The notes under the pieces were generated by a model. That model saw nothing but the letters and a program-made list of their open reading frames with translations, searched no databases and was not told the DNA's origin. A DNA stretch of 52,819 nt from a virus. Taxonomy: Duplodnaviria; Caudoviricetes. The stretch is from positions 1-52,819 of the IMG/VR virus record IMGVR_UViG_3300024520_000098; one strand, 5' to 3'. The position numbers and the translations under genes were made by a program. The first letter of the stretch is position 1; each line of letters opens with the position of its first letter. Shown here one piece after another: positions 10,677-51,248 of this stretch.

Positions 10677-11213
10677 ATGTCTGGATTTATGCACGGAGGC
10701 TCAGCCCTCACCCTAGATATTGGTTGCCGTAACGACACTGGCGCTGCCTGCTCTGGTGGCGACATTGTGCAGATTGACTTCCTCCAGCTTGTTGGTGGCG
10801 TCAATGTGGCTCAGGACGGGCTTGGGGCTATCACCCCTCCCGCTCTTGGCGCACCAGCCCTCAACGGCTGGGCGTTCGCCGCAGCCGACCTTGGCTCTGG
10901 CTACATGTCAGTGACAGGCGCTGTCATTGCTCCGCAAGGCCATACAATTATGGCTACCGAAGAAATGACAATCCGCGTGGCTGGCGTTGCCGAGGTTTCG
11001 GTACTTGGTCCCGGTGGCGGCTTAGCCATTGGCGACCTTCTTGATATTAGCCCTGGCGCAAGCAACCTTGTTGATTCTGCGCTGAGCGGTGGCAACCTGG
11101 GAACGGCTACTCCTGCCACGGCAGGACTTCTCCGAGGGGTTGCCCTGGAGACTGTTGCTGCTGGCGTAACCGCCGTTATCTCTGTCTGGCTTAAGCCTTT
11201 CGGTGGTATCTAA
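10677..11213 (+). CDS. Capsid decoration/cement protein
   Basis: G/A/V-rich; GDIV, IRVAGVAEV, GVALE pattern; follows MCP. Confidence 0.65.
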   Translation: MSGFMHGGSALTLDIGCRNDTGAACSGGDIVQIDFLQLVGGVNVAQDGLGAITPPALGAPALNGWAFAAADLGSGYMSVTGAVIAPQGHTIMATEEMTIRVAGVAEVSVLGPGGGLAIGDLLDISPGASNLVDSALSGGNLGTATPATAGLLRGVALETVAAGVTAVISVWLKPFGGI

Positions 11214-11227
11214 AAACTAACGTGTGA

Positions 11228-11250
11228 GCCGGGGGGCTTTGCTCCCCGGC
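11228..11250 (+). terminator. GC-rich hairpin after the capsid/decoration genes
   Basis: GCCGGGGGGC-TTT-GCTCCCCGGC with one G-U pair; no U tract. Confidence 0.55.
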
Positions 11251-11273
11251 AATCACAGCTAGGAGAATTGAAA

Positions 11274-11735
11274 ATGGCTGTAGCAGTACACGTTGGTCGA
11301 GTAGCAAAGGAGTACACTCCTTACGGCTATTCGATTATGGAAGACGTTTCAGGAGCTTTCCGGTTTACCGCCGGTGCTGGCGGTGCGACCGTCTTTTTGC
11401 CTATGTTTGACGATGCAGATGCTCGTATTGAGGCTATCAGTATTATCAGCGAAGGCGGTTATAATCAGGGAGCAGATAACGCTGTTAATAGCTGGGTTAT
11501 ACGGCTTGCAAGCTTTGACGCAGCAGGGGCCGCTACAACGCATGCCCTGGTGATGGACACAAGCACGGTAGTGACCGCAGCACCCCAGATTGGCGCTAAT
11601 GTTAGGGTTTCCGCGACCGCCTCAACCCCGGTGATTGCAGCGGGAAGCACGCTTGCAATTATTGTGGGTGAGAATGGAACCGCTAACGGAAACATTGACG
11701 CGACTGTTTTGGTCCGCGTTCGTCGCAAGGCATAG
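11274..11735 (+). CDS. Virion structural protein
   Basis: AGGAG RBS; beta-rich; in structural operon. Confidence 0.7.
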   Translation: MAVAVHVGRVAKEYTPYGYSIMEDVSGAFRFTAGAGGATVFLPMFDDADARIEAISIISEGGYNQGADNAVNSWVIRLASFDAAGAATTHALVMDTSTVVTAAPQIGANVRVSATASTPVIAAGSTLAIIVGENGTANGNIDATVLVRVRRKA

Positions 11736-21373: not shown

Positions 21374-24300
21374 ATGGCTGAAGAAGACTTCTCGTGGCTC
21401 TATGACAAGCCTACGCCGACCCCCCCTCCAGCGGTCCCTGTTGCTCAGGCTCGTGCCGAGGCTATGGAAGAGGCGATCCCAGAAGAGGACTTCTCCTGGC
21501 TCTATGGCGATGAGGCTCCTGTAGACGCTGTTCCTGTAGACGCTGTTCCAGAAGAGGAACCTCAAGAGGCTGTTGCAGGCCCCCCTAGCGATGAGGGCGG
21601 GGAGGATTTCTCCTGGCTTTATGGCGACACGGCTGGGCCTCCTATTCAAGCGCCTCCTGCTGAAGAGGACTTTGAAGCCCCGCCAGACCCGTCGCCCTTC
21701 CCTGCACAGCCACTAAGTGATTCTGAGCTTGATAGGGCCTTTGGGCTAAGCGCCGATGCTGGCCTAAGCATGGAAGGCATAATTCCAGGCTTTAGCGCTG
21801 GCGCTACGGCAGCGGAGTCCTTGCTTCCAGAGAACCTTCCAGAGGAGGTCCCGTCCACTATTTCGGGAGACAGGAAGGGAAGGCTTAAGGGTGATGACCT
21901 TCGCCGCGAGTGGGCGAAGATGCAGTACATCTATAAGAAGTCTATTACTCCAGACAGGCGGCTAGAGGCTGTCGGAGAGTTTGTTCATAAGTGGAGACCA
22001 GAGCTTGCTGAACGCGCTGGTTGGTCCCCAGACGGGTATCAAGAGCCAGAGGGATTGTTCGGGCTCTTCGACTGGATTGACAAGCTTGGACCTCGCCCCG
22101 TTCGCGCCCTGGCTAGGTCACTCAGAGAGCTTGAAGTTCAGAGAGCGGCGGCAGAGATTTCTGGCACAGAGCCTCCGTCTTTTGATGACGCGCTGAAAGC
22201 TATTTCTAGGAAGTACGAGGAGGACAAGGGCTACCCCGAGCATGGCGAGAGCCTTCTTAGGGATGCGCTTCTTTACTTTGGTGGCTCTGACGACCCAGAG
22301 GAAATCCTTAGCCAAGAGGCGGCTAAGAACAGGGGAGAGAGTTGGGCCGATAAAGCTTTGGATTCCTCCGCAGAGGAGCTTACTAGGTTTGGCTATGAGA
22401 TTGCCAAGCACCCCATCATCTCAGGAGCACTTGGCGGCGCTGCCGGTCTCTCTGGCTTTGGTCTTTTTGGCCCCATTGCAGCGGCTGCTGGTGGCATCGC
22501 TGGCGGCATTGGTGGGGCGTACTTTGGTGCTGGGGTTGATAGCGACGTATACGACACCGCAAAGGAAGAGGCGGTAGCGGCTGGCTCAGAGGGCGGGCAC
22601 TTCGCCCAGGGCCTCATCGCCTTGATGCTCTTTGACCCCCTTAACTTTATAAGTTTGGGTAAGTTCAGAGGAGCTACTGACTCTGCCAAAGACCTTATTG
22701 AGAAGGGGATGGGAGTCACGCGGAAGGGGGATGAGGCAGTTTCCGCTGAAGCTATCTCCTACCAGCGGGCCGGAAGGCAGCAGTTCGTACAAGAACTCCT
22801 AGAGGAGGCCCCAGAAAGCGTAGAGGCTGCAACGATAGGTCGCCTCTCCAATCAGCTTGATAGGGCAGAGGAGGCTCTGGACAGTGCTACGAGGTCGGTG
22901 AGGCTTAGGGAGGGTCTTTCGGAGTCTGCCGCAGCCCGAGGCGCTGACGACCTAGATGTGTTTGACGATGTTCGCTCTGCTTCTCAAGAGAATGCAGTAG
23001 TGGCTCAAGAGGCTTTTGATTCTATAAGGCAACAGTTTGACAATGCAGTGGAGTCGTTCACTGGCGACCTCCCTGCTGTAGCGAGAACAGCAGATCAGGC
23101 TCAGCTTATTGCAAAGAGTGACCTGCAAAGGGCGGCTGTTGCTGCTTTCAACATAGGGGCAGAGCTTAGGGGCTCCTTTGCTCCAGCACTTCTGGCGAAG
23201 CTTAGGGAAAAGGCCGTCCTCCTTGGGGTCGGAACAGATGAGGCGCAGAAGGCGTGGCAGGCTGGCCTGAGAGCGGCAGACGACCAGCGGCTTATCTTGG
23301 TGGGCTTTGAGGATGTCGCTGGAACAGCAATAGGGACTATGAAGGCGAAGCCAATCCTCAAGGATGTGGGCGCTGCTCGCGTGTATGAGATGGCGAAGAG
23401 GGGGGAGCTTGGTGTTGACGCGAGAGTTGCCGCAGAGCGACCCCAGTACAACGCTCTTGAGAAGATCATTGATAAGAGAAGCGGCAAGTCTTTTAAGGAG
23501 CTTTCGGACGAACTTACCGATGTCAGCTATCGCCCGAAGGAGGGCGTGGGCAGATTCGTAGACCCTACGTACTTGATCAGAAAGACTCTGGAGAGCACAA
23601 AGGGTGCTGGCGAGCTACAGGCTATTCGGGGAGAGGCTCAAAACATAAAGAGGCTGCTCAGAGATCCAAAGGTAAAGGGCGCTGCTCGCTCTGGATTAAA
23701 GAAGCGCCTTAAAGACCTTCAAGAGATGAGCAAGCAAGCCTCTTCAAAGAAGGGCCTTAGCAGAGAGTTTAAGCTCCTTCAGGAGGAGCGGCTAGTAACC
23801 GACCTCAACCCGATCTCCATGACCATAACCAGAAAGATACTGGACATGGCTCCGTGGCTTGACCCGCCTCGACAGTTTCTTCAAACCATCGGCAGGGGGA
23901 CTTTAAGCAGGACAGGGCAGCGACCACAGTTCTACACAAAGACAGGGCCTGAAGGGAAAAGGGTTCTTCGTGACAAGAACGAGATGGTTTACCCGCCAGC
24001 CCACTACCACGTCGAATTGCTTGAGCAGGCAAGGCATAGAGCTAGGTCTTTAGGCAAGGTTATGTGGCCTTCCGTTAGGGCCAAGATCCTCACCATCACT
24101 GAAGACGAGGAGGTACTTCGGGTTGCCAGGGAGTTTGTGGAGCTAGGCTATGCAGCACCACTAAAGGGAGTTAAGGGCGCTGAGCAACTCGTAGCAGCGA
24201 TAACCATTAGAGAATTGAATAGGGTTCTCAACCGCATCACTCAAGAGGGGACTCAGGGAACCGCTAGGGGCGACGGCTATCAGATGCTTAACGAGGAGGA

Positions 24301-27300
24301 AACCAAGCGGGCTATCAATGCCATAGACACTCTTGCAAGTACTCATCCAGAGATGGACACGTCTAACCTCAGAGCAGCGATAGAGGAGTACGGAGAGACT
24401 ACCGCTGGCATCTTGAGAGAGAGGGAGAATGAGGCCCTTTGGGCTCCCGGTAGCGACCTCGATAACGCAAGAAGGGACCGCCTCAACGAGACTCGCCTTG
24501 AGCTAGCCGTGTTTGAAGGCGCGTATAACAACATTGTTACCGAGAAGTTCCTCATGGGCGCAGAGCTTGAGGCTGCTGAGAGGGCAGAGCGTCTTCGCCC
24601 AGAGCTTGAAAGGCTTCAGTCAGAGGTTCATCGGATTAACGAGTTGCTTGGTAGCAAGGAAGTTACCTCTGAGCAGGCTATGGATGACCTCATTGAGACG
24701 CTGCTCCGCGAGGCAGAGGACATGCCTGGGGTCAATCTCAACCGTGATGAGCTTATCCCCATCGCTATACCGAGGAGTCCAGAGTACCTAGAGGCTGCCA
24801 AGGGCCTGGAGTCTGAGGCGCTAGTCGCTCACAAGGTCGTCCTTCGCGACCAGATTATCGAGATGTTTGACGAGACTGCTGCCAACACCGTCATGGACGT
24901 GATGGATAGGTGGGCTCAGATAGCCTATGAGCAGGGGAAGGTTACTCGCAAGGACGAGTGGTATCAGCAGGTCACTGGCATCCATGACGTGAAGACAGCG
25001 TTCTCTGAGGCTATGGGTCCAGGGATGCTCTTTCACGAGTACGAAGCAGCCCCAATCTTCTACTCCCAGCTTTATCGGTCTTTGGAAAAGGTTGGAGTCC
25101 CAGAAAAGGTTTCCCTAAATACGCTCGTAGACAACCTTGTTAGCTCTGGCGTTTCCCAGTCAACAATAGATGAACTGGACCTGACCGGCTGGGTACAGAG
25201 AAAGCTTGACGACATTGGAGAGTCCTTCGATGAGTCTTACCGAGGACCCCCAGAGAAGCAGGCTGGAATTAAAGAGCGCTCCCTTGAGAAGGCGACTGTT
25301 CGTCCTATCGATATAAAGAATTACATAGAGTCAACCGGACATGAGTCTGGAGACATCCTGAACAGGCTTGTGGGCGGCGATGTTTCCCTAAAAGACCTAA
25401 GCAAAATAGTTAAGAGCCTTGGCGTTGAGGTAAAGAACACAGGGCTTGCAGAGCTTTTGGTTGGCGAGATTAAATTACGTCTTGGCCGAAAGCAGTTGGA
25501 CGATTTTGAAGACCTTATTGCGAATAGCAAGTACGGGCTGTCAGACGCACTTAAATCTCCTCTTGTTCAGGACATAAAGTTCACGAGGGAGGAACTGCTT
25601 AGCTGGGTCAACACGTTCAGGACGCAGATTGGCGACGATGTTCGCGGCTATTTCTCCGACAAGGGCGACCTGAGCAGGCGGCTTGACCCTACCGAAGACC
25701 TTGTTCCCTGGAACGATCTTGCTGAAGACGTGTTGGGTAGACCGCTCTTTGGGGATGACTTTATTGGCGGTCACTCTCCTCGCCTTGATGAGTACATGGA
25801 GGCCCATCCAGTTCAGCGTCATGAGGAGTTGCTTGATCCGACTACGCGAATCCCAGAGGAGGACTTTCGGGTAACTGACGGTGATGCCTATCTATTCACG
25901 ATAGAAAATCTCACCGCAGACCCTGCGACGGGCAGGCTACGGGCTGAGATTGAGTTTACTGCCGAGACTCCCTATGGCGCTCAGGAGTTTGTGATTGAAA
26001 GGGGTATCGACCCAGAGGACTTCGGTGTTTCAGAAGAACTATTTCGTAGCTACTCTAAGCACTACGACGAGTCGGGGAAAAGGACCGACGAGAGCCTTAT
26101 GGGGGCTGAAAAGCGCGACGTAGCTTTCCCAGAGACAGACCCGTTCGACATTGGCCTCAACCTAAACACGCCGGGACAGGAGAAGTACACAGAGTGGCTT
26201 CTCATCAACAAGGGGGAGAGCGCAGAGGGGGTCACTAGCTCTGGCTCTGTTGCTCACTTTGGTGACACGAAGGACATCATTACCCATGTGCGGTTTGGCG
26301 TTCGCAAGGGGCCAGACGGCAAGCAATGGATGCACATCGAGGAGATTCAGTCTGACCTAGCCCAGGGGCTGAATAAGGCGAAGCGAGGCGATGCGGCGAC
26401 AAAGCTAACGGAAGACCTTTATGGCTTGGGAGACTCGGGGCGCACCGTCTCTGGCGAAAAGGCTCTTTGGGAGAGGCTAGCGTTCGACAGAGGGGTGGAA
26501 GCGGCAGACGAAATAGCGGCCATCGCTGAAGACACTATTTCCTGGCTAAACGAAGCCAAGGCGGCTCTTGGCAGCGCAGCCTTTAAGAGGATTGTTGATG
26601 AACTGCCTGAGGAGGCTCTTTGGTCTGAGTTCAACGGATACGACCCAAGAACTATGTCTGCCGGGAATCTCGACGGGCTTGCTCTTGAAGACTTCGGCAA
26701 GCTAGTCGATGCTCTTGTGTCATCAAAGGGTGGTATTGGCGAGACTGCTAACACCGGAAGACAGGCTGGAATATCGGCAGACACCAAGCTCCCCTATGAG
26801 AAGGGATGGATAGACCTTGCTATCAAGCGACTGGTTGCCTTTGCCGTAGACGGGGCAGACGAGCCCATTCATGGCATCTCTTGGACGACAGGAGACGTTC
26901 AGGACACCCGGTACATGGGGCTTGCTAAGGACGCCCTGATAGGCCAGTACGACACTGCTATGCCCGCTAGGTTTAGAAGCCTGTACGGAAAAGATACCGG
27001 GGGAATCGAGCTAAAGGACTTCTCGTTTAAGACAAGCGATACGGTGGTTGACGACCTTGATGACGCTGGCGATGTAAACCAAAGCCTTTCTCGCTTTCTT
27101 GACGAGCTTGGCGAAAGAGACACGGGGTCACTAGCTCTGGACTTCGGAAGCGGTGTTATTTGGTACATCTACAAGAGCCTTGGCAAGGAAGGCCGCAAGC
27201 GCTACGGGGTTGCAGAGATAGAGACTACTGCCTTTAAGGAGTTTGGCGCAGACATTCGCGAGACAAGGCAGGCGCTTCTGGACTCAAAGCTTGCAAAGAT

Positions 27301-30300
27301 TCCTGTAAAGGACATCGACTTCGGCTCAGAGGTTCACGGCTTTGAGATAACTCCAAAGCTTAAAGAGCATGTGCGCAAGGGTCAGGCGCTTCACCACCTG
27401 AAGGACAAGGTTGTTCGCGGGGCAATGAAGCTTGAGGAGGAGGGTCGCGTCTCCATCCACGCCTTTGAGTCTGCAACCGTAGGCACCCTGGTTCACGAGA
27501 TGGGCCATGTGCTGCGTCGCAACCTCCAAGAGGGCGAGCTAAAGACCGTAAAGGACTGGCTTGTTGGCGAATCGTCTAGGCTCAGCAAGCTCCCGAGGGA
27601 GGAGCTAAGCAAGGACATAGCCCACCTCTTTGAGGCAGAGGGAGTCGTTAGGGTTGTAGACAACAAGGGCAACTTCACCAGAGAGGGCGAGGAGATTTTC
27701 GCTCGTGGCTTTGAGCGCTACCTCATGGGCGACCCGCCAAGAGGGGCTTCTGACGATGTTCTTAAGCTCTTTGAGAAGATGAAGAAGTGGCTTACCGACA
27801 TCTACAAGGCTGTAACTGGCAACGACGTTGAGGTGTCCCAAGAGATCAGGCAAGTCTTCGATAGGTACATTGCTGGCGGGGAGCAGCCCAAGGTTGCGGC
27901 CAAGGAGAACTGGCAGATTAAGCGCGTCGATGTGGGAGCAAAGCCAGGGCAGACGCTAGAGGAAGCTCTGGAGCTACACCGGGGTCAGGTCGAGGCCGCG
28001 ATAAACAGGGGAGACGACGTTCCTGCTGAAGTCCTTATGGACTACGAAGACCTCCTTCTCGACATCGCCAACAAGGCAATCAATCGCGGCAAGGGCGCGA
28101 CGAAGGATGCAGGCAAGCGCCTTAACAAGGCAGCTAAAGAGATGGGGAAGATTGCTGATGAGGGTGTTGAGGCTCCAGAACCAAAGAGACAGCGCACCAG
28201 GTACGACGGTCTAACACCGGAAGAGGCTTTTGAGCTGTATCAGAAAAATGTTTCTTCTCTTGAAGCGAGCTTCTTTGCAAAAAGAGAAAAGATCAAAGAC
28301 AAGAGAAAGCAAGAGATACTCAGTAGGCAGTTTCTTGATGAGAGGGTGAAGCTCGATGATGAGTATGACCTCGCAAAGGAGGTTGTTGATAAAGGGGCAG
28401 CCCGTGGTCGCAGGAAAAGGGCTGGCAACCTAGACATAGCCAGGGAGAATGTAAGGAAGGCTCTCAGTGTAATCAGAAGGGCCTCCAAGGATAAGAAGTT
28501 CTCAACGGCAGCAAAGCAACTAGAGGCAGTCAAGGCTCTTAAGGCGGGGGAAGAGCTTGCCGTCAAGGCTGGAAGCCGCGAGAGACACCTTCTTGAGGCT
28601 CTAAAGTCCAAGTACGAAGACCAGACAGGAGAGCTTCTTCAGACAATAGACTCTTCTAGGGTAGAGGCTAGGTCGAACGCACGTAGAGCGGCATACATGC
28701 TTACGAGGGGTGTCCTTCGTGGAGAGCAAACCGTGGCTCCCGGCCAGGGAAGGGCTCAGCTTGAGCAGGCTATCGACCTAGTGTTGAGTCAGTTCGGTAG
28801 GGGCGCTGACCCGCTTGACGTGCTTCAGAAGGGTGTCACTAAGGGGCTTGTTCAGCGAGCGACTATGGCTCTTCCAGAACGCATCATCGCTGTAGAGAAA
28901 AGGATAAGCGACCTTGAGATAAAGATTGATGAGAAGGCAACGAAGGGCTTAAAGAGGCAGCTTGCTAATCAGAAAAGAAAGCTTGCTACCCTTCGTGAGC
29001 AGGCTCAGCCAATCAAAGATCAGATCGTTGTAGGCCAAGAGGACCAAGTAACAGGGCTTGGCAGGGCCGTTAAGGAGCTTCGCGCTCAAGAGAAGGCAAC
29101 CAACAGAGTTCTGGGAGGGGTTGAACCCACCGTAAAGGCTGTGACTGACCAGCTTTCTGACATCGAGGGAAGCCTTGACCGCCTCGCTAAGTTTGCCGAA
29201 AGCATGGACTATGACTTCAGGCTACCGGCAGACATCAGGCGCGAGATTTACAGCGCCAAGCAGTCGTATCTGAACAACATCGAAGCGCACAGAATAAATT
29301 ACGACGGCGCGATGCAGGCATTTAGGGAGGCAGAAACCGGCAGGGCAATGCTGAACATGACCAATGATGAGATGACTCGCGTGAAGAGGCTCGTCAAGGA
29401 CCCCAATCTTCATGACCTGACTGCTGGCAAGGAGAAGCTGCTGAAGAAGGCTAGGGCTGAGACAACTAGGCTCTCCGCTTCAATTGCTCGCTTGAAAGAT
29501 TCCGGTAAGGATACCTCTAAGCAAGAAGCTGCTCTTAATTCAGCGCGTCGTCGGGTTGACATCCTAGAAGATGAGGGGATGACCAAGGAGGTCATCGAAG
29601 CAGCTAAGTTAATTAAGAACTTCTTTGACGACTGGCTTGAGAAGCTCAAGGAGAACGGCGTCCTTGATAAGGGCTTTGACGAGGAAGCGTTCTTCGACCG
29701 GGTAGATATTGCTGGCTACATTCCTCACGTAACAACTGTCACGACGCGAAGGAAGATCGAAGCCCTGAGAGGGAAGGGGATGCTCCCGAGAAGGGGAGAG
29801 CCTGGGTTCGCCAAGAAGCGGAAGATAGCTGGAACGATTGATGAGATCAACGCCCAAGCGAGAACCAGCGTGGCTGAGTCAATCGCCTACCACCTTGCCT
29901 CGACCCATCAGTTTGGCGATGAAGCGGTGGAGGCTTCCAAGCTAGCGGGGGACCAGCTTAAAGAGGTGCTTAAGAAGAATGGCATTGAGTGGACTAAGCT
30001 TATTGATGAGATCAAGTCAGACGCTGGTCTGGATGACATATTTGAGTTCTTTGAGACTGACCCGATGGTTCTCATGGAGCGATACAACGACTCTGCCTCC
30101 CAGCTTGTTGCCGATAACAAGTTCATCGAGGACATACTTGAGCTATTCCCGTTGGGTCGCGAGCTTGGCGACATGTACGGCGAGTTTGCCGATGCACGAG
30201 CCCTGTCTCTTGGGTACGAGCGGCTCTCTTCTGTAGAGCAGTTGCAGGTTGTGATGGGCAAGAAGCTGCCCCCACAGCTTCGTAACTTTGAGTCCCTAAT

Positions 30301-32167
30301 CAAGCAGCAGTTGGCTGAAGGGGTGCCTCTTAATGAGATTGTCGATGACCTCATTGCGAAGGGGGTAAGCGCTGAGCTTATCTCTCCTGACATCGTTCAG
30401 GGGTTTGCCGCAAAGCAGTGGTACGTGCCCTCCTCTGTGGCTGAGTACCTTCGCTACATGAATAAGCCAGACAAGTTCTTGGGGATGTCTGCTGACCATA
30501 AGTTTGTTCAAGTCTTCGACGGAATCCAGTCTTGGATGAAGATGATGGCAACCATCGCGGCTCATGCCCACCTTGGTCGCAACTGGATTGGAAACGTCAT
30601 CTCTCCGATTCAGGAGATGGGCCTTGGGGCCTTGGACCCAGAGTCTCAGTTTGCCGCCATAATGATATGGGGATCGTGGAGCGATAAGCATTTAGGCAAG
30701 ACGCTTGAGTTTGCTGGCAGGAAGATGACCATCAAGGAGTGGCGTGAGTTCTGGCAGGTGCGTGGTGTTTACGACTCTCCCGTTTCTTCCGAGTTCATCA
30801 AGGAGACGATGGGGGTCCAGGGCCTTCAGGAGGTTCCCACCATAGAGAGGCTTGCTAAGCAGCTTGGTGGTACTGGAGCGGGAGCGGCTCTTGGGGGGGT
30901 TGTGGCTGGCCCAGCGGGGGCCTTTATAGGGGGCCTTGCTGGAGCCTTCATCACGGCTAAGCCCTTTAGAAACAGGGCATGGACTAGCTTTGTCGATGAC
31001 ATTGGCAGCGCTGTTGAGGCTGGCCCAAAGAGGGCTATACCTGCTATCGGTCAACATGTTTCTGGCGTAGGCACTGGCGCTGTCATTGGGTCTGCGATTG
31101 CTCCTGGGGTTGGCACTGCAATTGGCGCTGCAATTGGTGGGCTATCCTTCCCTGATTACATCAAGATGATGTCGGGTCTTAACCAATCCATTGAAGCTCA
31201 GGCTCGCGTAAGCATGGCTATGGCGCTTTTGAAGAAGGGTGAAACTCCCGATGCTGCTCTTGCTGCGGTTAACAGGGCGCTGAGAAACTATTCAGACCTA
31301 AACCCTTGGGAGCGTAGCGTTATGCGCCGGGTGTTCTTCTTCTACACATGGGACGCTGGCAACATCAGGTTCCAACTTCGTCAGCTTCGCCGGAAGCCGA
31401 GAGAAGCAAAGGTCGTAGCGTCCTTTGGCAACGGTGTTTACAAGGGGCAGTTCTCTGAGGAGGAGATCAATGCGCTTCCAGAGCACCTGCGGTGGAGGGT
31501 TATCTTCAGGACTGGAGCTACCAAGCTAATATCCCTCTCTGGTCTTCCTCATGAGCCAGCTATTGAAATACTTAGTCGTGGAAAGCACGGAATCCCAACA
31601 GGTCTTGTCTCTAGGATTAGGCCAGACGTGCTTACCTTCATTGAGTGGGCTTTCGGTGGCGGCAAGAGCACCTACTACGGGAAGCAGTGGGAGCAGATAA
31701 ACAATGTTCGTTCTCTGAAGAACGCCCCTCCCCTTCTTAAAGCAATGGTTGGTTTCCCGGAGGACGGGGAGACGCTTCGCGTTCCTATCTATAAGAACGG
31801 AAAAAAGACTGGGAAATACAGGACAGAATATAGGGCCAAAAACCCAAGGCTTATGTACTTAATGCAAAGGGTTCCTGGCTACCGAGTCATAAACGAGTAC
31901 AACAAAATTGTTACTGACACGTTTCAAAGCTTTGCAATGGACCAGGGTGACGATACTCTTGCGGCCACTGGCTCAGAGAGGTTCTGGGCATTTGCCTTTG
32001 GGCAGAAGCCGACAACGATTGACTGGGACGGTCAGATTCAATACATGGCATACCAACTTGAACAGCGTCTTCTGGACATAGTTGACAACGAGAACTCAAG
32101 AGCGGTTAAGGAAATAAAGGCTCTTAGTCCCACATGGACAGGACCAGCAGAACCAGTGGCCCAATAA
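21374..32167 (+). CDS. Giant (3597 aa) polyvalent internal virion/ejection protein with zincin-like metallopeptidase domain
   Basis: TLVHEMGH...EEIFARGFE; FYSQL...HIEEIQSD domain; coiled coils; glycine zippers; C-term YSDL..WER..RRVFFFYTW; no Cys found. Confidence 0.85.
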   Translation: MAEEDFSWLYDKPTPTPPPAVPVAQARAEAMEEAIPEEDFSWLYGDEAPVDAVPVDAVPEEEPQEAVAGPPSDEGGEDFSWLYGDTAGPPIQAPPAEEDFEAPPDPSPFPAQPLSDSELDRAFGLSADAGLSMEGIIPGFSAGATAAESLLPENLPEEVPSTISGDRKGRLKGDDLRREWAKMQYIYKKSITPDRRLEAVGEFVHKWRPELAERAGWSPDGYQEPEGLFGLFDWIDKLGPRPVRALARSLRELEVQRAAAEISGTEPPSFDDALKAISRKYEEDKGYPEHGESLLRDALLYFGGSDDPEEILSQEAAKNRGESWADKALDSSAEELTRFGYEIAKHPIISGALGGAAGLSGFGLFGPIAAAAGGIAGGIGGAYFGAGVDSDVYDTAKEEAVAAGSEGGHFAQGLIALMLFDPLNFISLGKFRGATDSAKDLIEKGMGVTRKGDEAVSAEAISYQRAGRQQFVQELLEEAPESVEAATIGRLSNQLDRAEEALDSATRSVRLREGLSESAAARGADDLDVFDDVRSASQENAVVAQEAFDSIRQQFDNAVESFTGDLPAVARTADQAQLIAKSDLQRAAVAAFNIGAELRGSFAPALLAKLREKAVLLGVGTDEAQKAWQAGLRAADDQRLILVGFEDVAGTAIGTMKAKPILKDVGAARVYEMAKRGELGVDARVAAERPQYNALEKIIDKRSGKSFKELSDELTDVSYRPKEGVGRFVDPTYLIRKTLESTKGAGELQAIRGEAQNIKRLLRDPKVKGAARSGLKKRLKDLQEMSKQASSKKGLSREFKLLQEERLVTDLNPISMTITRKILDMAPWLDPPRQFLQTIGRGTLSRTGQRPQFYTKTGPEGKRVLRDKNEMVYPPAHYHVELLEQARHRARSLGKVMWPSVRAKILTITEDEEVLRVAREFVELGYAAPLKGVKGAEQLVAAITIRELNRVLNRITQEGTQGTARGDGYQMLNEEETKRAINAIDTLASTHPEMDTSNLRAAIEEYGETTAGILRERENEALWAPGSDLDNARRDRLNETRLELAVFEGAYNNIVTEKFLMGAELEAAERAERLRPELERLQSEVHRINELLGSKEVTSEQAMDDLIETLLREAEDMPGVNLNRDELIPIAIPRSPEYLEAAKGLESEALVAHKVVLRDQIIEMFDETAANTVMDVMDRWAQIAYEQGKVTRKDEWYQQVTGIHDVKTAFSEAMGPGMLFHEYEAAPIFYSQLYRSLEKVGVPEKVSLNTLVDNLVSSGVSQSTIDELDLTGWVQRKLDDIGESFDESYRGPPEKQAGIKERSLEKATVRPIDIKNYIESTGHESGDILNRLVGGDVSLKDLSKIVKSLGVEVKNTGLAELLVGEIKLRLGRKQLDDFEDLIANSKYGLSDALKSPLVQDIKFTREELLSWVNTFRTQIGDDVRGYFSDKGDLSRRLDPTEDLVPWNDLAEDVLGRPLFGDDFIGGHSPRLDEYMEAHPVQRHEELLDPTTRIPEEDFRVTDGDAYLFTIENLTADPATGRLRAEIEFTAETPYGAQEFVIERGIDPEDFGVSEELFRSYSKHYDESGKRTDESLMGAEKRDVAFPETDPFDIGLNLNTPGQEKYTEWLLINKGESAEGVTSSGSVAHFGDTKDIITHVRFGVRKGPDGKQWMHIEEIQSDLAQGLNKAKRGDAATKLTEDLYGLGDSGRTVSGEKALWERLAFDRGVEAADEIAAIAEDTISWLNEAKAALGSAAFKRIVDELPEEALWSEFNGYDPRTMSAGNLDGLALEDFGKLVDALVSSKGGIGETANTGRQAGISADTKLPYEKGWIDLAIKRLVAFAVDGADEPIHGISWTTGDVQDTRYMGLAKDALIGQYDTAMPARFRSLYGKDTGGIELKDFSFKTSDTVVDDLDDAGDVNQSLSRFLDELGERDTGSLALDFGSGVIWYIYKSLGKEGRKRYGVAEIETTAFKEFGADIRETRQALLDSKLAKIPVKDIDFGSEVHGFEITPKLKEHVRKGQALHHLKDKVVRGAMKLEEEGRVSIHAFESATVGTLVHEMGHVLRRNLQEGELKTVKDWLVGESSRLSKLPREELSKDIAHLFEAEGVVRVVDNKGNFTREGEEIFARGFERYLMGDPPRGASDDVLKLFEKMKKWLTDIYKAVTGNDVEVSQEIRQVFDRYIAGGEQPKVAAKENWQIKRVDVGAKPGQTLEEALELHRGQVEAAINRGDDVPAEVLMDYEDLLLDIANKAINRGKGATKDAGKRLNKAAKEMGKIADEGVEAPEPKRQRTRYDGLTPEEAFELYQKNVSSLEASFFAKREKIKDKRKQEILSRQFLDERVKLDDEYDLAKEVVDKGAARGRRKRAGNLDIARENVRKALSVIRRASKDKKFSTAAKQLEAVKALKAGEELAVKAGSRERHLLEALKSKYEDQTGELLQTIDSSRVEARSNARRAAYMLTRGVLRGEQTVAPGQGRAQLEQAIDLVLSQFGRGADPLDVLQKGVTKGLVQRATMALPERIIAVEKRISDLEIKIDEKATKGLKRQLANQKRKLATLREQAQPIKDQIVVGQEDQVTGLGRAVKELRAQEKATNRVLGGVEPTVKAVTDQLSDIEGSLDRLAKFAESMDYDFRLPADIRREIYSAKQSYLNNIEAHRINYDGAMQAFREAETGRAMLNMTNDEMTRVKRLVKDPNLHDLTAGKEKLLKKARAETTRLSASIARLKDSGKDTSKQEAALNSARRRVDILEDEGMTKEVIEAAKLIKNFFDDWLEKLKENGVLDKGFDEEAFFDRVDIAGYIPHVTTVTTRRKIEALRGKGMLPRRGEPGFAKKRKIAGTIDEINAQARTSVAESIAYHLASTHQFGDEAVEASKLAGDQLKEVLKKNGIEWTKLIDEIKSDAGLDDIFEFFETDPMVLMERYNDSASQLVADNKFIEDILELFPLGRELGDMYGEFADARALSLGYERLSSVEQLQVVMGKKLPPQLRNFESLIKQQLAEGVPLNEIVDDLIAKGVSAELISPDIVQGFAAKQWYVPSSVAEYLRYMNKPDKFLGMSADHKFVQVFDGIQSWMKMMATIAAHAHLGRNWIGNVISPIQEMGLGALDPESQFAAIMIWGSWSDKHLGKTLEFAGRKMTIKEWREFWQVRGVYDSPVSSEFIKETMGVQGLQEVPTIERLAKQLGGTGAGAALGGVVAGPAGAFIGGLAGAFITAKPFRNRAWTSFVDDIGSAVEAGPKRAIPAIGQHVSGVGTGAVIGSAIAPGVGTAIGAAIGGLSFPDYIKMMSGLNQSIEAQARVSMAMALLKKGETPDAALAAVNRALRNYSDLNPWERSVMRRVFFFYTWDAGNIRFQLRQLRRKPREAKVVASFGNGVYKGQFSEEEINALPEHLRWRVIFRTGATKLISLSGLPHEPAIEILSRGKHGIPTGLVSRIRPDVLTFIEWAFGGGKSTYYGKQWEQINNVRSLKNAPPLLKAMVGFPEDGETLRVPIYKNGKKTGKYRTEYRAKNPRLMYLMQRVPGYRVINEYNKIVTDTFQSFAMDQGDDTLAATGSERFWAFAFGQKPTTIDWDGQIQYMAYQLEQRLLDIVDNENSRAVKEIKALSPTWTGPAEPVAQ
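21380..21627 (+). repeat. Three EDFSWLY peptide repeats at the N-terminus of the giant protein
   Basis: Degenerate DNA copies near 21380, 21482 and 21601. Confidence 0.85.
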
Positions 32168-36060: not shown

Positions 36061-36431
36061 CCACCTCTGACTACATGGACTTAGCTGTTCGAGCAGGCGG
36101 TATTTCACTGGCGACCTATGCGGTTATCGGGCAGGTAGCAAAGCCTGGGATTAGGATGCTGGCGAAGTACCACTCCCACCCAATCGGCAAGCTGACAAAG
36201 GGTCAGGAGGAGTTCTATCGATGGTTAACCCGCACTCTCTGTGTTGTTATCGGCGGCATCATGGGCTACATGCCTCTCTGGCCCGGTTGGTTTGAACCTA
36301 GTTGGGGTCCAATCCTTGGCTGCATCGCCGGTTCTATGTCCCCTGGTATCTACCTTGCCGTTTCTAAAGCCCTACCAAAGAAGCTCCAGAAGCTCATCTC
36401 CGGTGCCTCTGTTTCGGGCAGCAGTAAATGA
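36057..36431 (+). CDS. Holin-like multi-TM membrane protein
   Basis: About 3 hydrophobic segments, basic C-term. Confidence 0.6.
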   Translation: MTTSDYMDLAVRAGGISLATYAVIGQVAKPGIRMLAKYHSHPIGKLTKGQEEFYRWLTRTLCVVIGGIMGYMPLWPGWFEPSWGPILGCIAGSMSPGIYLAVSKALPKKLQKLISGASVSGSSK

Positions 36432-36775
36432 GCACGTATCTGATAGGCATGGCTGTGGCCTTGGTAACAGCCTTGGTTGTTATTGGCGTTGTCGCGGCGA
36501 AGAACGAGGAACTCAGGACGAAGCTTGTGGGGGTAGGTCTGGGAATTGCCGGTGCCCTTGCTGCAATCGTTGCGCTGATGTTGGCTAATTCTGACGCAAA
36601 GAAGGCGCGCAGAGTTATGAACTCTAAGAAGGAAATTAAAGATGCAGTTAAGGATTCTAAAGAGCGGCATGCTGAAGAGGTTAAAGATGTGTCTGCTATT
36701 CAAGACGAAGTGGATGCAATTTCAAACGGATCTTCGGGCTTGGATGCGCTCGCTGCTAGGATGAACGAGAGGTAG
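36428..36775 (+). CDS. Membrane protein with coiled-coil tail (i-spanin-like?)
   Basis: Two TM segments then a charged helix. Confidence 0.6.
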   Translation: MSTYLIGMAVALVTALVVIGVVAAKNEELRTKLVGVGLGIAGALAAIVALMLANSDAKKARRVMNSKKEIKDAVKDSKERHAEEVKDVSAIQDEVDAISNGSSGLDALAARMNER

Positions 36776-36777
36776 TT

Positions 36778-36912
36778 ATGGCTGTCAAAGGAAAGAAGTG
36801 CGTGGTTAAGCGAAAGTCATCCTCAAAGAAGGGTGCTCGCAGACAGCCCGTTAGCAAGATGCGAACGGCAAGGAAGAAGAGTAAGCCCGGTGGGGCGAAA
36901 GGTCCGTACTGA
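36778..36912 (+). CDS. Lys/Arg-rich microprotein (44 aa)
   Basis: GAGG RBS; MAVKGKKCVVKRKSSSKKGARR...; TGATG-coupled to next gene. Confidence 0.65.
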   Translation: MAVKGKKCVVKRKSSSKKGARRQPVSKMRTARKKSKPGGAKGPY

Positions 36913-37142
36913 TGAAATCACATCGCCCAGACGAAGCGAAGAAGCACATGAAGGAAGAGGGCCATAAAGACCGGGAGAATGCGCACCATTCTGGAGTAAA
37001 GATCGTCATCAATGTGGGCGGTCCTCCGATGCCGATGGCTCTGCCTATTGGAAAGCCGCCGAGGAAGCTGCTTAAGAAGAGGCTGAAGAAGCTTAGTGCT
37101 AAGGGACCGATGGAAGCTGCTCTTAGCGAGGCCTGCTGCTAA
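36912..37142 (+). CDS. Small basic protein
   Basis: Coupled at both ends (TGATG, TAATG). Confidence 0.65.
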   Translation: MKSHRPDEAKKHMKEEGHKDRENAHHSGVKIVINVGGPPMPMALPIGKPPRKLLKKRLKKLSAKGPMEAALSEACC

Positions 37143-37291
37143 TGCCGGTCAAGCCCTGCAAGTCTAAGGGCAAGCGGGGCCACAAGTACGGCACCAAGGG
37201 CAAGTGCTACACAGGGAAGAGCAGCAAGGGCAAAGCATCAAGACAGGGGCGAGCTATCAAGGCGTCTCAGGGAAAGAGAAGCGCCAAGTAG
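37142..37291 (+). CDS. Lys-rich microprotein (49 aa)
   Basis: MPVKPCKSKGKRGHKYGTKGKCYTGK...QGRAIKAS; TAATG-coupled. Confidence 0.7.
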   Translation: MPVKPCKSKGKRGHKYGTKGKCYTGKSSKGKASRQGRAIKASQGKRSAK

Positions 37292-37299
37292 CCGCTTGA

Positions 37300-37859
37300 T
37301 TAGAAATTGTGCAGTGGGTACGCTCCCCACTGATCTCCAAGGGATGCGTCTCCCCACAATCAGCGCATCTCTTGCCTATGGCCCCCGTCCAGTACCTCAA
37401 CCTCCTGGGCGGGCGGCCTATTGGGCAGAGCACACCCCCATCCAGCGACCCCTTACTGCTGAGCAGCGGATGGACGCTTACATGCTGGACAGTTTCAGCT
37501 TAGCTACCCTGGTCGCATGCAGGCAGCGTCACCTTTTCGGTTCATCACTAAGCAGACGGGGGTATATCTGCTTGACCCACAGCGATGCTGCGTGATTCAC
37601 CGAGCCTAAAATTGAAGAATCTTCTTCTCCCTGTACAGCACCCTGCTCTTGTTTCGCCCTATGAGGCTGGGGCCACTCGGAGCAGGGGTATGGCGGGGAC
37701 CGTAGCAGGGAGGGGTTGCGCTTGGCAACGGTCTAGGTTATTTTTCCACCGTGTTGCGATGAGGCTCGCTGGCATCCTTCTTCCTTTGCCAGCTTGACGC
37801 AACACGTTTGTACAGCAACAACTCCCCCTCACACCTGACCGTGGGGGGGAGTTGCTGTA
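37300..37859 (+). ncRNA. Candidate large highly structured non-coding RNA (~560 nt), family not recognised
   Basis: No credible ORF; about a dozen nested helices, G-U wobbles consistently on the + strand, complementary loops suggesting pseudoknots. Confidence 0.7.
37811..37859. terminator. Long hairpin at the convergence of the + and - arms (possible bidirectional terminator / ncRNA 3' end)
   Basis: CAACTCCCCCTCAC/GTGGGGGGGAGTTG; TACAGCAAC/GTTGCTGTA. Confidence 0.55.
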
Positions 37860-38300
37860 TCAGGGCCTCGATATAAGAAGAGCAACTACTGCAATCATCG
37901 CAGCGCCAGTTCCAACGCTCACACCCAGGAAGAACATCTTTGGCTGTGCGTTAAGAGCGGCCTTCGTCTGGTACTCCTGCGCTGCAAGAATCTCCTGGGC
38001 TAGCTCTCTATCGCTTTCCCTGCCCTTGTAGGAGACATCGAGAGCAAGCTTTGTCTGGGTGAGGAGGTCTGACTCATCGAGCAGAGCCTCAAAGTCATTG
38101 GGAGGCACCAGCATTCCTACGCAGTCAGGGTCGATACCGGGTCCGATGGGCTGCGTATTCACGCACCACTCATCGTTGTTCGCCGGAATCTCTATGTCTG
38201 GAATCTCTACGCGAGGAAAGGGTTCCTCGAACAATGCTTGAGATGCTGGAACATGAGCGCACCCGCCAAGCAGAATCAGTAAGGGAATCATCTTATTCAT
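37860..38300 (-). CDS. Lipoprotein with C-terminal TM helix (unimolecular-spanin-like topology)
   Basis: MNKMIPLLILLGG-C lipobox; C-term MFFLGVSVGTGAAMIAVVALLI. Confidence 0.65.
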   Translation of the reverse strand: MNKMIPLLILLGGCAHVPASQALFEEPFPRVEIPDIEIPANNDEWCVNTQPIGPGIDPDCVGMLVPPNDFEALLDESDLLTQTKLALDVSYKGRESDRELAQEILAAQEYQTKAALNAQPKMFFLGVSVGTGAAMIAVVALLISRP

Positions 38301-38500
38301 AGCCGTCTGGCCTTCCACATTTGGTTAAAGCTAAAGCTAGCAAGCGGTCTCTTGGATGTCCTTATCCAGTTCTCGTATCCGCACTCGCACTCTTGTAGCC
38401 AGAACGCAGGTAGCTTAAGAGATTTCCTAAACTCTTCGTCTGTCTTATCAGTAGGGTTGTGCATCTTCCAAGGACCATACTTATGGCGGTGCTTGCTCAT
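38297..38500 (-). CDS. Hypothetical protein (CECG)
   Basis: ATGA overlaps on both sides. Confidence 0.65.
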   Translation of the reverse strand: MSKHRHKYGPWKMHNPTDKTDEEFRKSLKLPAFWLQECECGYENWIRTSKRPLASFSFNQMWKARRL

Positions 38501-38952
38501 CCTCCGATTGAAGACAGGAAGCCCTTTGTCGCCCCTGTCAGGCCCGCGATAAGCGCACCCATTTTATCGACCGCCTCTACGCGAACAATCCTTGGGGCGC
38601 TGAGCAGCGCGATTGGCCTCCCGATGTGGAAGGACTTGCTTGCCCCACTGCGCATCTCCTGAAACTCTACCTCCTGCGCTGCAAGGCACCACTTTGAACT
38701 AATCTTTGTATACCCAACAGCCCACGCCTCCCTGGAGCGGCGAACCCCTGGAGTTGTCGCATCAACCCAAGGCCCCACGCTTAGGTGATGCTCGGGTTGG
38801 TCAAGCCAGTATGTATCGCCCACTCCCATCGACCCAAGGCGCTCCTCTATGGAAAGGATTCTCTCATTCAGCCTGTCTGTCGCCTCGTTCAGGGCGCTTG
38901 CTACTACAGACAATTCCCTAAGCCCTTTCTCTAAGTCGTCGCTTGCAGGCAT
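38497..38952 (-). CDS. Hypothetical protein
   Basis: RBS and tight packing. Confidence 0.7.
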   Translation of the reverse strand: MPASDDLEKGLRELSVVASALNEATDRLNERILSIEERLGSMGVGDTYWLDQPEHHLSVGPWVDATTPGVRRSREAWAVGYTKISSKWCLAAQEVEFQEMRSGASKSFHIGRPIALLSAPRIVRVEAVDKMGALIAGLTGATKGFLSSIGG

Positions 38953-47069: not shown

Positions 47070-47140
47070 CGCTGACTTAATCAATCTAAATGGTTATCGT
47101 TTCGATGTCAACAACTATTTTTCCAACTACGAAGTAGTTG
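47070..47140 (-). promoter_or_regulatory. Early promoter (TTGACA-17-TAGATT) with upstream palindrome CAACTAC-GAA-GTAGTTG
   Basis: -35 at 47106-47111, -10 at 47083-47088. Confidence 0.88.
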
Positions 47141-47151
47141 TTTCGCGTGTC

Positions 47152-47685
47152 CTATATGCATCGCAACACAGCCACGCCGCCCTCCTTCAGGCTCACGCTG
47201 GTGTAGTTGTCTATGAACAGGTCGCGAGCCAGTCGCTCCCAGTCGATGTAGATTCCGAGAAATCCGTCGGTGTCCTCGCCCATGCTGACGACAAACTCAA
47301 AGGCGAAGTCTTCCTCGCTCTCATAGGTGCCCACATAGGCGTCTTCGATGTACTCGTTTACCTGCTCAAGGCTTGCGTCCCCGCCGTGGTAGTCGAGTGC
47401 ATGCTCCAGCACTCCGTATGCATGGTGGTTGGAGTTGCAGACCTCATCGACCAGAAGCCCTAAGCGCAAAGCCACAGACGGGCTGCACTCATCCCTGATT
47501 GGCAGGCCCTCGTGGTCCATGACCCAAAGCTCTTCAGCGTCCTCTACTGGCGAGCTACCAAGGACTCGCTTGAGTCCCTTATTGAACTCATCCTCATCGT
47601 CACAATCAAGCCACTCGCCATGCAGTATTCCTGAGTTGTATGCGGCTAGGCATCCGACCCATGCTCTCGGTTCTATTGCGCTCAT
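47152..47685 (-). CDS. ardA: Antirestriction protein ArdA (type I RM inhibitor, DNA mimic)
   Basis: WVGCLAAYNSGILHGEW, AEELWVMDHEG, YVGTYESEEDFA, YIDWERLARDL; very acidic. Confidence 0.92.
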   Translation of the reverse strand: MSAIEPRAWVGCLAAYNSGILHGEWLDCDDEDEFNKGLKRVLGSSPVEDAEELWVMDHEGLPIRDECSPSVALRLGLLVDEVCNSNHHAYGVLEHALDYHGGDASLEQVNEYIEDAYVGTYESEEDFAFEFVVSMGEDTDGFLGIYIDWERLARDLFIDNYTSVSLKEGGVAVLRCI

Positions 47686-47720: not shown

Positions 47721-47790
47721 CGCTGACTTAATCAATATATCGAAGTGATTAAACTCTGTCAACAACTATTTTTCAATTACGAAGTAATTG
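47721..47790 (-). promoter_or_regulatory. Early promoter (TTGACA-17-TATATT) with upstream palindrome CAATTAC-GAA-GTAATTG
   Basis: -35 at 47757-47762, -10 at 47734-47739. Confidence 0.88.
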
Positions 47791-50130: not shown

Positions 50131-50185
50131 TCGCTGACTCAATCAATCTAAATCAATAGGTTCGGTCTGTCAACAATTATTTTTC
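50131..50185 (-). promoter_or_regulatory. Early promoter (AAAAATAATTG-TTGACA-17-TAGATT)
   Basis: -35 at 50168-50173, -10 at 50145-50150. Confidence 0.88.
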
Positions 50186-50474
50186 ATCCTTCCGGGCAAA
50201 GCATCGGGTGAAAAGAATCCTCAGTCGGCAGCCACTCCGCACTACATATGCCGCCGTGCGCCTGCAACTCTGCACGGGTAGCAAGCGTCATGTAGTGCGA
50301 CTCATCGTCGCCAGACTCGCTGACACGAGCGATGAACTGCTCTCGACTCTCGCCTGTACGCTGGCGAAGATGCGACACGCTAGGCATCGACTCAGTTGGG
50401 TGCGCGACTATGGACAAGCCCTCTTCAAGCGCCCATTGAATCGTCTGCGGCATGTAATCGTCTCTCAAAGGCAT
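50184..50474 (-). CDS. Hypothetical protein
   Basis: AAGGGG RBS before ATG 50474. Confidence 0.6.
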   Translation of the reverse strand: MPLRDDYMPQTIQWALEEGLSIVAHPTESMPSVSHLRQRTGESREQFIARVSESGDDESHYMTLATRAELQAHGGICSAEWLPTEDSFHPMLCPEG

Positions 50475-50559
50475 GACTGCCCCCTTTCGTTGTTGGGAAC
50501 CCCCTGCATCGAGCCACCACTCTCGATGCAGGGACGCACAGGGCCTAATCCCACCCTGC

Positions 50560-50805
50560 CTATGCAGACACTTGCACGGGCTCGCTGCCCGCCCAGACAT
50601 GAGCGCTCTCATGCAAGTGCCACTCGCCGCCATGAATTACGAAGGAAAAGACACCGTAGTGCTCGTCTGCGATGTCGAGGGTTTCCCCTTCCGGGTGCAT
50701 GCCCGGTACGGGGAGGAGGAGTTCGATGATGTCGCCTGCGATTTCCGCGATGGCGACGTAGGTGCTGCCTTGGTGCAGCGGGGCGATGGTGAATAGTGGG
50801 GACAT
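50560..50805 (-). CDS. Hypothetical acidic protein
   Basis: AAGGA RBS; first gene after promoter. Confidence 0.7.
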   Translation of the reverse strand: MSPLFTIAPLHQGSTYVAIAEIAGDIIELLLPVPGMHPEGETLDIADEHYGVFSFVIHGGEWHLHESAHVWAGSEPVQVSA

Positions 50806-50842
50806 GGCTGGTTCCTTTCGGGATGCAGCGAGACGGGATGTT

Positions 50843-50897
50843 TCGCTGACTCAATCAATGTAATCCGGTTAACTCTGGCTGTCAACAATTATTTTTC
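50843..50897 (-). promoter_or_regulatory. Early promoter (TTGACA-17-TACATT)
   Basis: -35 at 50880-50885, -10 at 50857-50862. Confidence 0.88.
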
Positions 50898-50978
50898 AAT
50901 GGGCCTTCAGTGTTGCTTTTCTTGCGCAACACGCATGATGGAGCGCACAGGTGTGTGCCTATGCGCTCGACATGCGTG

Positions 50979-51248
50979 CTACGCAGTGATGTGCCCCCAT
51001 CCGCGTGGCGCGCTATCCGCATGCTCTGTGCGCTCAAGCGTGTTCGCGAGTGCTGCAAGGCGCGTCTCCGCTTCCTCCCACGATCCCGCGATGTCAACGA
51101 ACGGGGTTTCGCCGGGTGCCTGATACTCGAACTCGTACATACCGGGTGCGATTTCCCACACGTAGCCCACGAGTATGTCCCCATCGCGCTGTAGCGCTCG
51201 CGTGGGCACACTGTGATGCTCGCTATCGTCTATGAATTGCAATTCCAT
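50979..51248 (-). CDS. Hypothetical acidic protein
   Basis: AAGGAG RBS. Confidence 0.7.
   Translation of the reverse strand: MELQFIDDSEHHSVPTRALQRDGDILVGYVWEIAPGMYEFEYQAPGETPFVDIAGSWEEAETRLAALANTLERTEHADSAPRGWGHITA

Follow-up and report, generated by a model that had tools for sequence, protein, structure and literature searches.

Introduction

Lambda sib, the T7 RNase III sites and the 'excludon'-type overlapping 3' untranslated regions (UTRs) are 3'-end structures that set the stability of messenger RNAs (mRNAs) or couple converging transcription units. Another kind of phage RNA is represented by ROOL and GOLLD, which occur in phages and prophages and whose function is unknown; in a preprint they are described as often lying near tRNA islands and as defined by covariation (bioRxiv 10.1101/2024.12.08.627333). 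Here we analysed a linear virus record of 52,819 base pairs (bp) from IMG/VR (IMGVR_UViG_3300024520_000098; Duplodnaviria, Caudoviricetes), which is estimated to be 95% complete; this whole record is called the window below. A first-pass annotation made from the letters alone had proposed a new, ornate non-coding RNA (ncRNA) of ~560 nucleotides (nt) at the end of the late operon, and we followed up the 568-nt interval concerned (37292-37859). The interval is non-coding and rich in hairpins, it is absent from the relatives compared, and it lies where the end of the late block was rearranged. From this we infer, tentatively and with a little less than an even chance, that it is a lineage-specific, expanded hairpin spacer that terminates and protects transcripts, the 3' ~270 nt of which is probably made as + sense RNA.

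The interval resembles lambda sib, the T7 RNase III sites and the excludon-type UTRs in placing a structured RNA 3' of an operon's last gene. However, each of these is a single hairpin or a defined antisense overlap and is backed by experiments, whereas the interval is known from its sequence. With ROOL, GOLLD, OLE and HEARO it shares that it is phage-encoded, non-coding, a few hundred nt long and made of many helices. It is different from them in that those families rest on covariation across many homologues, while no homologue of the interval was found. Furthermore, tRNA islands are often near ROOL and GOLLD, according to the same preprint, but the window holds no tRNA.

Position and coding status of the interval

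The source phage belongs to an uncultured marine group without a close cultured relative. All 24 of the listed public runs that hold parts of the stretch were marine, seawater, vent or viral metagenomes (mostly with small shares, but with 27-99% of the sampled words in eight of them), and the best match of the capsid protein among GenBank phages was below 26% identity. A search of the genome collection returned 18 distant prophage-like matches and no clear host. In this genome the interval is the meeting point of the converging late (+) and early/middle (-) gene blocks. The + strand block, up to 37291, encodes a helicase, terminase-like, capsid and tail proteins, a 3597-amino-acid (aa) protein and an Rz-like protein, and the - strand block, down to 37860, encodes ArdA, a PHROG-1221 protein, an exonuclease, Sak4-like and SSB-like proteins and small open reading frames (ORFs). 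A 49-aa + strand ORF stops on one side of the interval (37291), and a - strand gene stops on the other (37860). It had been described as the largest gap without a credible ORF, and this was confirmed: it is the largest gene-free stretch in the window, where no other gap in a greedy gene call exceeded 259 nt. The greedy call filled the interval itself with ORFs of 99 and 70 aa, both of which were rejected as genes here.

It is extremely unlikely that the interval encodes one or more small proteins, be it the 99-aa and 70-aa ORFs on the + strand or the 58-aa and 57-aa ORFs on the - strand. The 99- and 70-aa ORFs do cover most of the + strand of the interval, but the codon-usage scores of the six interval ORFs (40-99 aa) were negative, from -0.03 to -0.39 bits/codon, and fell within the distribution of 81 spurious ORFs inside long genes (-0.21 +/- 0.16 bits/codon). 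For comparison, 11 neighbouring genes scored +0.11 to +0.44, including three small ORFs of 44, 76 and 49 aa directly upstream. None of the six ORFs matched Pfam or PHROG at E up to 0.1, and the 99-aa ORF had no relative among 5.8 billion predicted proteins. In addition, the composition of the ORFs is not protein-like, and their frames would be broken by the 1-nt indels found at 37453, 37621 and 37663 in strain contigs. The interval 37292-37859 is non-coding, and codon-type conservation, which the annotation had named as a finding that would speak against an RNA, was absent from it.

No known RNA family accounted for the interval either. An Rfam scan of the whole window at gathering scores gave no match, and a scan at E up to 10 over 37100-38000 (901 nt) returned sub-threshold noise only, with no ROOL, GOLLD, OLE or HEARO; 11 further loci were scanned against Rfam, also with no match. 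ARAGORN detected no tRNA or tmRNA gene in the 52.8-kb window, in agreement with the earlier failure to recognise a tmRNA. One candidate was the Rhizobiales small RNA Atu_C7 (RF02501), whose model aligned over its full length, below threshold, with 37703-37856 (a two-tier hairpin with a pyrimidine loop followed by the terminal hairpin). Its 23.8 bits fall short of the gathering score (45); searched at E up to 1, the same model matched 8 of 14 unrelated control genomes and gave one 7-bit match among the records of 5 relatives, and the likeness was treated as noise. Since scans of 57 ORFs against Pfam and/or PHROGs revealed no reverse transcriptase, integrase, other recombinase or TnpB-type protein, there is also no pointer to a retron, an attP site or a guide RNA.

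Comparison with the junctions of related phages

Relatives were collected by protein anchors. The PHROG-1221 protein led to 80 viral loci, 11 of which were syntenic through the early genes at ~45-67% protein identity, and the 124-aa late protein led to 14 further loci at 73-96% identity. The 357-aa protein gave one viral relative (38%) without synteny and three short metagenome contigs that end before the interval, while the 152-aa, Sak4-like and 191-aa proteins gave no relatives. No homologue of the interval was found in 109 phage loci, 50,697 GenBank phage records and 5 whole relative records. For example, blastn and nhmmer gave no match in 84 loci (2.37 Mb) or in the 11 loci encoding the 49-aa basic protein, and blastn gave none in the 14 loci sharing the 124-aa late protein or in the GenBank phages. 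An exact 26-mer of the interval was not found in IMG/VR, and the five whole records, one of them 97% complete, yielded merely 18-19-nt matches with E of 0.05-0.3. The annotation had counted on homologues from related phage contigs for covariation; none turned up, and strain-level differences were all that was available for such a comparison.

The convergent junction itself could be mapped in 19 loci. In 18 of them the two blocks are separated by ~0-166 nt or have overlapping ORF ends, and in L127 by 337 nt, a gap that is unstructured (z +1.0) and partly covered by an ORF. The largest gap anywhere in another 97%-complete relative was 222 nt, and an apparent 1-kb gap in L115 and L116 was discarded because a long open-ended ORF runs through it. 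Six of the short junction spacers were folded, and five of them were strongly structured, with z of -4.15 to -6.90 and one or two hairpins of high stability; the spacer of L007 was not (z -0.09). Canonical U-tracts were seen in L012 and L127, but the interval of the window has none. The spacers could not be aligned with each other or with the window (mean column identity 39%).

The interval and the spacers of the group (L006-L024, L119-L132) are therefore alike in their place, between the last late and the last early/middle gene, and in the very stable GC hairpin on the early-block side, which beat the shuffles in the five structured cases. They differ in size: 568 nt and about nine hairpins in the window against 0-166 nt and one or two hairpins in the relatives. 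A hairpin spacer at the convergent junction is the rule in this group, whereas the interval is specific to the narrow lineage of the window, since the mapped relatives lack the element at the same junction.

Hairpins and strength of the fold

The annotation had listed a series of helices, and direct reading and stem lists located every one of them. The hairpins of the interval, with folding energies on the two strands where both were compared, were as follows:

37312-37332, + strand: H1, 7-bp hairpin CAGTGGG/CCCACTG (-10.1 kcal/mol on +, -11.6 on -)
37338-37374, + strand: H2, 11-bp hairpin with one G-U on + and a loop containing CUCCCCAC (-16.0 on +, -12.9 on -)
37373-37427, + strand: H3, extended bulged hairpin with a CCUC-rich loop (-32.7 on +, -26.1 on -)
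37445-37516, + strand: H4, GCGACC/GGTCGC around an inner helix; the 5' arm alternatively pairs with 37704-37719
37523-37591, + strand: H5, GCAGCGTC/GATGCTGC around AAGCAGA/TCTGCTT, more stable on the - strand (-20.8 on +, -25.1 on -)
37627-37700, + strand: Pa+H6, outer helix 37628-34/37693-99 around the CCCTGCTC/GAGCAGGG hairpin, with the strongest + strand preference (-40.4 on +, -28.5 on -)
37698-37733, + strand: H7, GACCGT/ACGGTC hairpin, followed by a U-run at 37741-37746 (-13.9 on +, -8.4 on -)
37750-37806, + strand: H8, two-tier hairpin of 9 bp and 7 bp with the pyrimidine loop UCCUUCUUCCUU
37811-37859, unstranded: H9, terminal hairpin of ~20 bp abutting the stop codon of the - strand gene (z -4.22)

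In position, H9 corresponds to the strong hairpins at the junctions of related phages. It is followed by UAUCAGG on the + strand and by ACAAACG on the - strand, with no U-tract on either.

The whole interval folded better than dinucleotide shuffles on both strands, with a minimum free energy of -243.6 (z -5.10) on + and -240.7 (z -4.77) on -, and none of 100 shuffles was as good in either case. The signal is not evenly spread. The 3' half (37595-37860) reached -122.2 kcal/mol on + (z -5.89) and -107.9 kcal/mol on - (z -4.29), each with none of 200 shuffles as good, but the 5' half (37292-37594) was marginal, with z of -2.24 on + and -2.18 on - and 3 of 100 shuffles as good. The description of the interval as almost fully tiled by helices applies to the 3' half and fails for the 5' half. 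With the fold signal located mainly in the last ~270 nt, a single ornate RNA of ~560 nt is not indicated.

Measured against the genome's own background the signal was smaller. Among GC-regressed 569-nt segments of the same genome (n=174) the interval ranked third on + (-2.0 standard deviations, sd) and first on - (-2.65 sd), so that a z of about -5 against shuffles shrinks to about -2 to -2.7 sd; the whole interval is out of the background but not extreme. With 300-nt segments (n=526), 37601-37900 ranked third on +, and 37301-37600 ranked 140 on + and third on -. In perfect stems of at least 7 bp with a span up to 120, the interval had 9, compared with 3.06 +/- 2.03 per 569-nt segment (1046 segments, maximum 11). 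At least 9 stems were found in 17 segments; among the best 12 of these 17 (counts 9-11), seven overlapped the interval and five lay at 46.65-46.75 or 50.85-50.9 kb. The interval is one of the two most hairpin-dense places in the genome.

Two other structured places were noticed in the same scans. A second hairpin-dense region at 50200-51050 contains the longest perfect stem (12 bp, 50502-50533) as well as stems of 10 bp at 50238-50299 and 50941-51035, and lies partly within predicted early ORFs. The strongest + strand fold outlier of the genome is at ~10600-11500, around the genes after the major capsid gene, where the 300-nt segments at 11101 and 11201 were -3.1 sd and the 569-nt segment at 10892 was -2.85 sd.

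Strand preference and a possible role in DNA

An RNA of + polarity had been argued from G-U wobbles that would be A-C mismatches on the - strand. Direct reading found six G-U pairs on the + strand in the listed helix arms. When stems were searched with G-T and A-C allowed on equal terms, the G-U to A-C ratio was 4:0-1 for the strongest hairpins; it was about 10:5 for the full set of 36 stems, of which many exclude one another. Seven of the nine hairpins were more stable on + (H1 and H5 being more stable on -), a count that is biased in that the hairpins were defined on the + strand, and the 3' half was 14 kcal/mol more stable on + than on -. The lean that the earlier argument rested on is real, but both strands fold almost equally well overall and the unbiased ratio is modest; the interval leans towards + polarity, and its polarity is not established. 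The loop-loop pseudoknots proposed at the same time fared similarly. The complementarities exist; however, a 6-mer, and a 10-mer allowing G-U, among ~160,000 position pairs are at chance level, where by simple arithmetic estimate many matches are expected.

The near-equality of the strands also raises the question of whether the inverted repeats act in DNA, as an origin of replication, as a signal for single-strand initiation, or as a site of recombination or packaging. Such a DNA-level element would be in keeping with the third rank of the 5' half on the - strand, with the SSB, Sak4 and exonuclease genes 1.7 kb away, with the A/T-rich short patches that separate the hairpins, and with the cumulative GC skew, which peaks and turns at the interval. 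However, the switch of gene orientation explains the turn of the skew equally well, no iterons or meaningful direct repeats are present, and the terminase gene is 31 kb away, with no integrase or recombinase among the 57 scanned ORFs. The G-U asymmetry and the per-hairpin energies favour one strand, and related phages do without the element. We consider this explanation very unlikely.

Strain variation and RNA-library contigs

The strain comparison covered four of the public runs, and stretches without cover in these carry no evidence. The X4 DNA contig over 36700-38500 has 58 differences from the window. Among the 40 listed, 35 are in 36700-37291 and 5 in the interval; those listed are sorted by place and reach 37804, and the other 18 probably lie beyond. 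Among the differences listed, the interval had 5 in 568 nt (0.9%), besides one 1-nt deletion, compared with 12 in 380 nt (3.2%) in the adjacent small ORFs (p 0.012) and 35 in 592 nt in 36700-37291 (p 1e-6). The contrast would have p = 0.18 if all 18 other differences lay in the interval, and 23 of the 35 differences in 36700-37291 cluster in a patch of 147 nt that looks recombinant. The interval also varies at its centre: a 151-nt contig of the X5 run over 37549-37701 has 13 substitutions and 2 deletions.

Two substitutions fall in stems. G37693A in Pa+H6 turns U-G into U-A, and A37804G in H8 turns U-A into U-G; pairing is kept on the + strand in both, and each leaves an A-C on the - strand in one allele. 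By reasoning, about half of stem transitions preserve pairing, so two pair-preserving changes of two are not significant. Four 1-nt indels were located in loops or linkers of the hairpin model, of which 37621, 37663 and 37840 are unpaired positions. Together, the strain variation hints weakly at constraint and at + strand pairing. In the X10 oligo-dT RNA library, two 151-nt contigs of depth 2 were found, at 37590-37740 and 37739-37889, and nothing else of the 1.8-kb stretch. They represent one duplicated fragment (a read pair) with no strand information, and coincide with the structured 3' half.

These observations bear on the claim of a discrete, functional, structured + sense ncRNA of a new kind, which would be the whole ~560 nt or, more likely, a 3' domain of ~270 nt (e.g. 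a scaffold, a sponge or a protein partner). The interval is non-coding and matches no known family, and its 3' half has a z of -5.89 on + and the third rank of 526 there. The low X4 density relative to both flanks among the differences listed, the two pair-preserving changes, the confinement of indels to loops and the position of the sole RNA-library contigs of the 1.8-kb stretch on the 3' half all fit such an RNA. However, no homologue of the element was found in the loci and records searched, which leaves no covariation to count for it, and it is absent from phages whose neighbouring proteins are up to 96% identical. No promoter-like site was found in our scan, the 5' half barely beats shuffles and the - strand folds nearly as well overall; two pair-preserving transitions of two carry no significance, and the RNA evidence is one duplicated fragment. 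We hold a discrete RNA to be unlikely. Regarding the first-pass proposal, the non-coding status, the richness in hairpins, the lack of an Rfam family and the lean to + stood, but the signal is found only in the last ~270 nt. Its wider suggestion of a new large phage ncRNA met with no homologue, with absence of the element at the 19 mapped junctions and with a single duplicated RNA read pair. Nothing so far shows that the interval is a new family of large RNAs.

Remodelling of the end of the late block

The genes on both sides of the interval differ from those of the relatives, and the following features are needed here:

36778-37291, + strand: three very small, very basic (Lys/Arg-rich) ORFs of 44, 76 and 49 aa, ending the late block, with positive codon scores and third-position bias
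37860-38300, - strand: gene of 152 aa with an N-terminal lipobox (LLGGC) and a C-terminal hydrophobic segment, from reading of the translation

In the mapped relatives, the usual order at the end of the late block is an Rz-like gene, a gene of ~177-180 aa and then one or two paralogous genes of ~120-135 aa. The ~177-180-aa gene was seen in L007, in L012 and, as an ORF of ~180 aa, in eight of the L119-L132 loci; in L120 it has 148 aa. Two copies of the paralogue family (~116-136 aa) side by side end the late operon in L006, L007, L011, L012, L013 and L024 (e.g. L012 13898-14699), and ORFs of 118-126 aa occupy the paralogue position in most L119-L132 loci. A pseudogene of a lost paralogue was tried as an explanation of the interval and rejected, as a profile of the 12-member family found nothing (best E of 6 in the region and 1.1 in the window). 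An invertible segment was likewise rejected, there being no flanking inverted repeats.

The 152-aa gene at 37860-38300, which from its translation would have a u-spanin-like layout, overlaps the end of a 67-aa gene of the early block. It is homologous to the gene of ~177-180 aa in the relatives. Its homologues in L120, L007 and L012 are on the late strand after the Rz-like gene, and it is inverted in the window; the L120 homologue, on the late-gene strand, has 50% identity (E 3e-38), and the other homologues matched at E 9.5e-5 and 2e-3. A + strand gene at 36428-36775 was noted together with this u-spanin-like - strand gene. Identity to L119 is 96% for the 124-aa protein, 56% for the next gene and 43-44% for the early genes, which places a sharp mosaic boundary at 36431/36428.

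The 44-, 76- and 49-aa ORFs are probably real genes, judging from their codon composition. Among the X4 differences listed, 20 of the 33 within these ORFs are at third codon positions; when the 115-aa gene is included, the count is 21 of 35 (p 0.001). Relatives of the 49-aa protein at 56-78% identity occur in 11 other viral contigs (L108-L118), and a homologue of the 76-aa protein is downstream of the 49-aa homologue in 7 of the 11 (directly in 5), in different genomic contexts. In a variant of the discrete-RNA explanation, the interval or its 3' ~270 nt would be a new + sense structured RNA of one marine phage lineage, which may form a late ribonucleoprotein with these three basic proteins; we regard this as distinctly unlikely.

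The remodelling could also mean that the interval has no function. It would then be a scar of module exchange, i.e. DNA left over, fossil terminator hairpins included, from successive recombination at a mosaic boundary. The interval is indeed lineage-specific and coincides exactly with the drop in protein identity to L119 from 96% to 56%, the relatives have two genes that are missing from the window, the neighbouring gene is inverted, and one run has the hypervariable patch of 13 substitutions and 2 deletions in 151 nt. On the other side, decayed genes do not give rise to hairpins at a density that exceeds the genome mean by 3 sd, no trace of the lost gene family is left, and the X4 substitution density among the differences listed is below that of the flanking genes. 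Furthermore, phage genomes are compact, with a next gap of only 259 nt in the window and a largest gap of 222 nt in a 97%-complete relative. We therefore see a functionless scar as rather unlikely.

A proposed expanded spacer for termination and protection

The explanation that we favour, tentatively as said, is the expanded hairpin spacer. In this model, the stack of stable GC hairpins, ending in the ~20-bp hairpin against the last - strand gene, would stop or slow RNA polymerases arriving from both sides, and would shield both mRNAs from exonucleases at their 3' ends. As the 3' UTR of the late operon, the last ~270 nt (about 37595-37859) would be made in + sense, and processing may release a stable fragment from this tail. 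The spacer probably grew as the end of the late block was remodelled, in which the two genes of most compared relatives went missing, the pair of tiny basic-protein genes was gained and the lysis-type gene was inverted. Transcription of the interval, its polarity and its role as a terminator or stabiliser are what we infer.

Several observations weigh against this explanation. No hairpin followed by a U-tract, the mark of an intrinsic terminator, was found inside the interval on either strand in a scan of 36500-38600. In the 18 relatives with 0-166 nt, the spacer is shorter by a factor of 3.4 to more than 10, and a plain terminator does not need the length seen in the window. The low X4 density among the differences listed suggests a constraint on the sequence beyond what simple hairpins require, in one contig with a mosaic flank. 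The differences at 37294, 37309 and 37430 break weak long-range pairs of the global minimum-energy fold. Finally, the X10 contigs cross the terminal hairpin, a poor fit to efficient termination there, and they could be DNA carry-over.

If the interval is merely an enlarged terminator or 3'-UTR spacer, it would be a modest example of hairpins accumulating at mosaic phage boundaries, and would serve chiefly as a caution about fold z-scores taken against shuffles. If it is a discrete RNA, it would join the very few large phage RNAs without a known function, as one restricted to a lineage.

Other features of the genome

Three features away from the junction were also noted. The 3597-aa ORF (21374-32167, + strand) has no Pfam domain and weak PHROG matches only, to a family of unknown function and a tape-measure family; the relative G001 has a 2792-aa counterpart at its position. 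In the early block, an ArdA-type antirestriction protein is encoded at 47152-47685 (- strand; Pfam E 2.2e-26). Furthermore, the 19-nt motif TGTCAACAAYTATTTTTCA is present four times in the same orientation, at 47106-47124, 47757-47775, 50168-50186 and 50880-50898, compared with a chance expectation of 0.01 matches. The copies sit in small gaps between - strand early genes. On the - strand the motif reads as an A/T-rich stretch ending in TTGACA, with TACATT 17 nt later at the 50880 copy, and from this arrangement the four copies look like a candidate set of early sigma-70-type promoters with UP elements.

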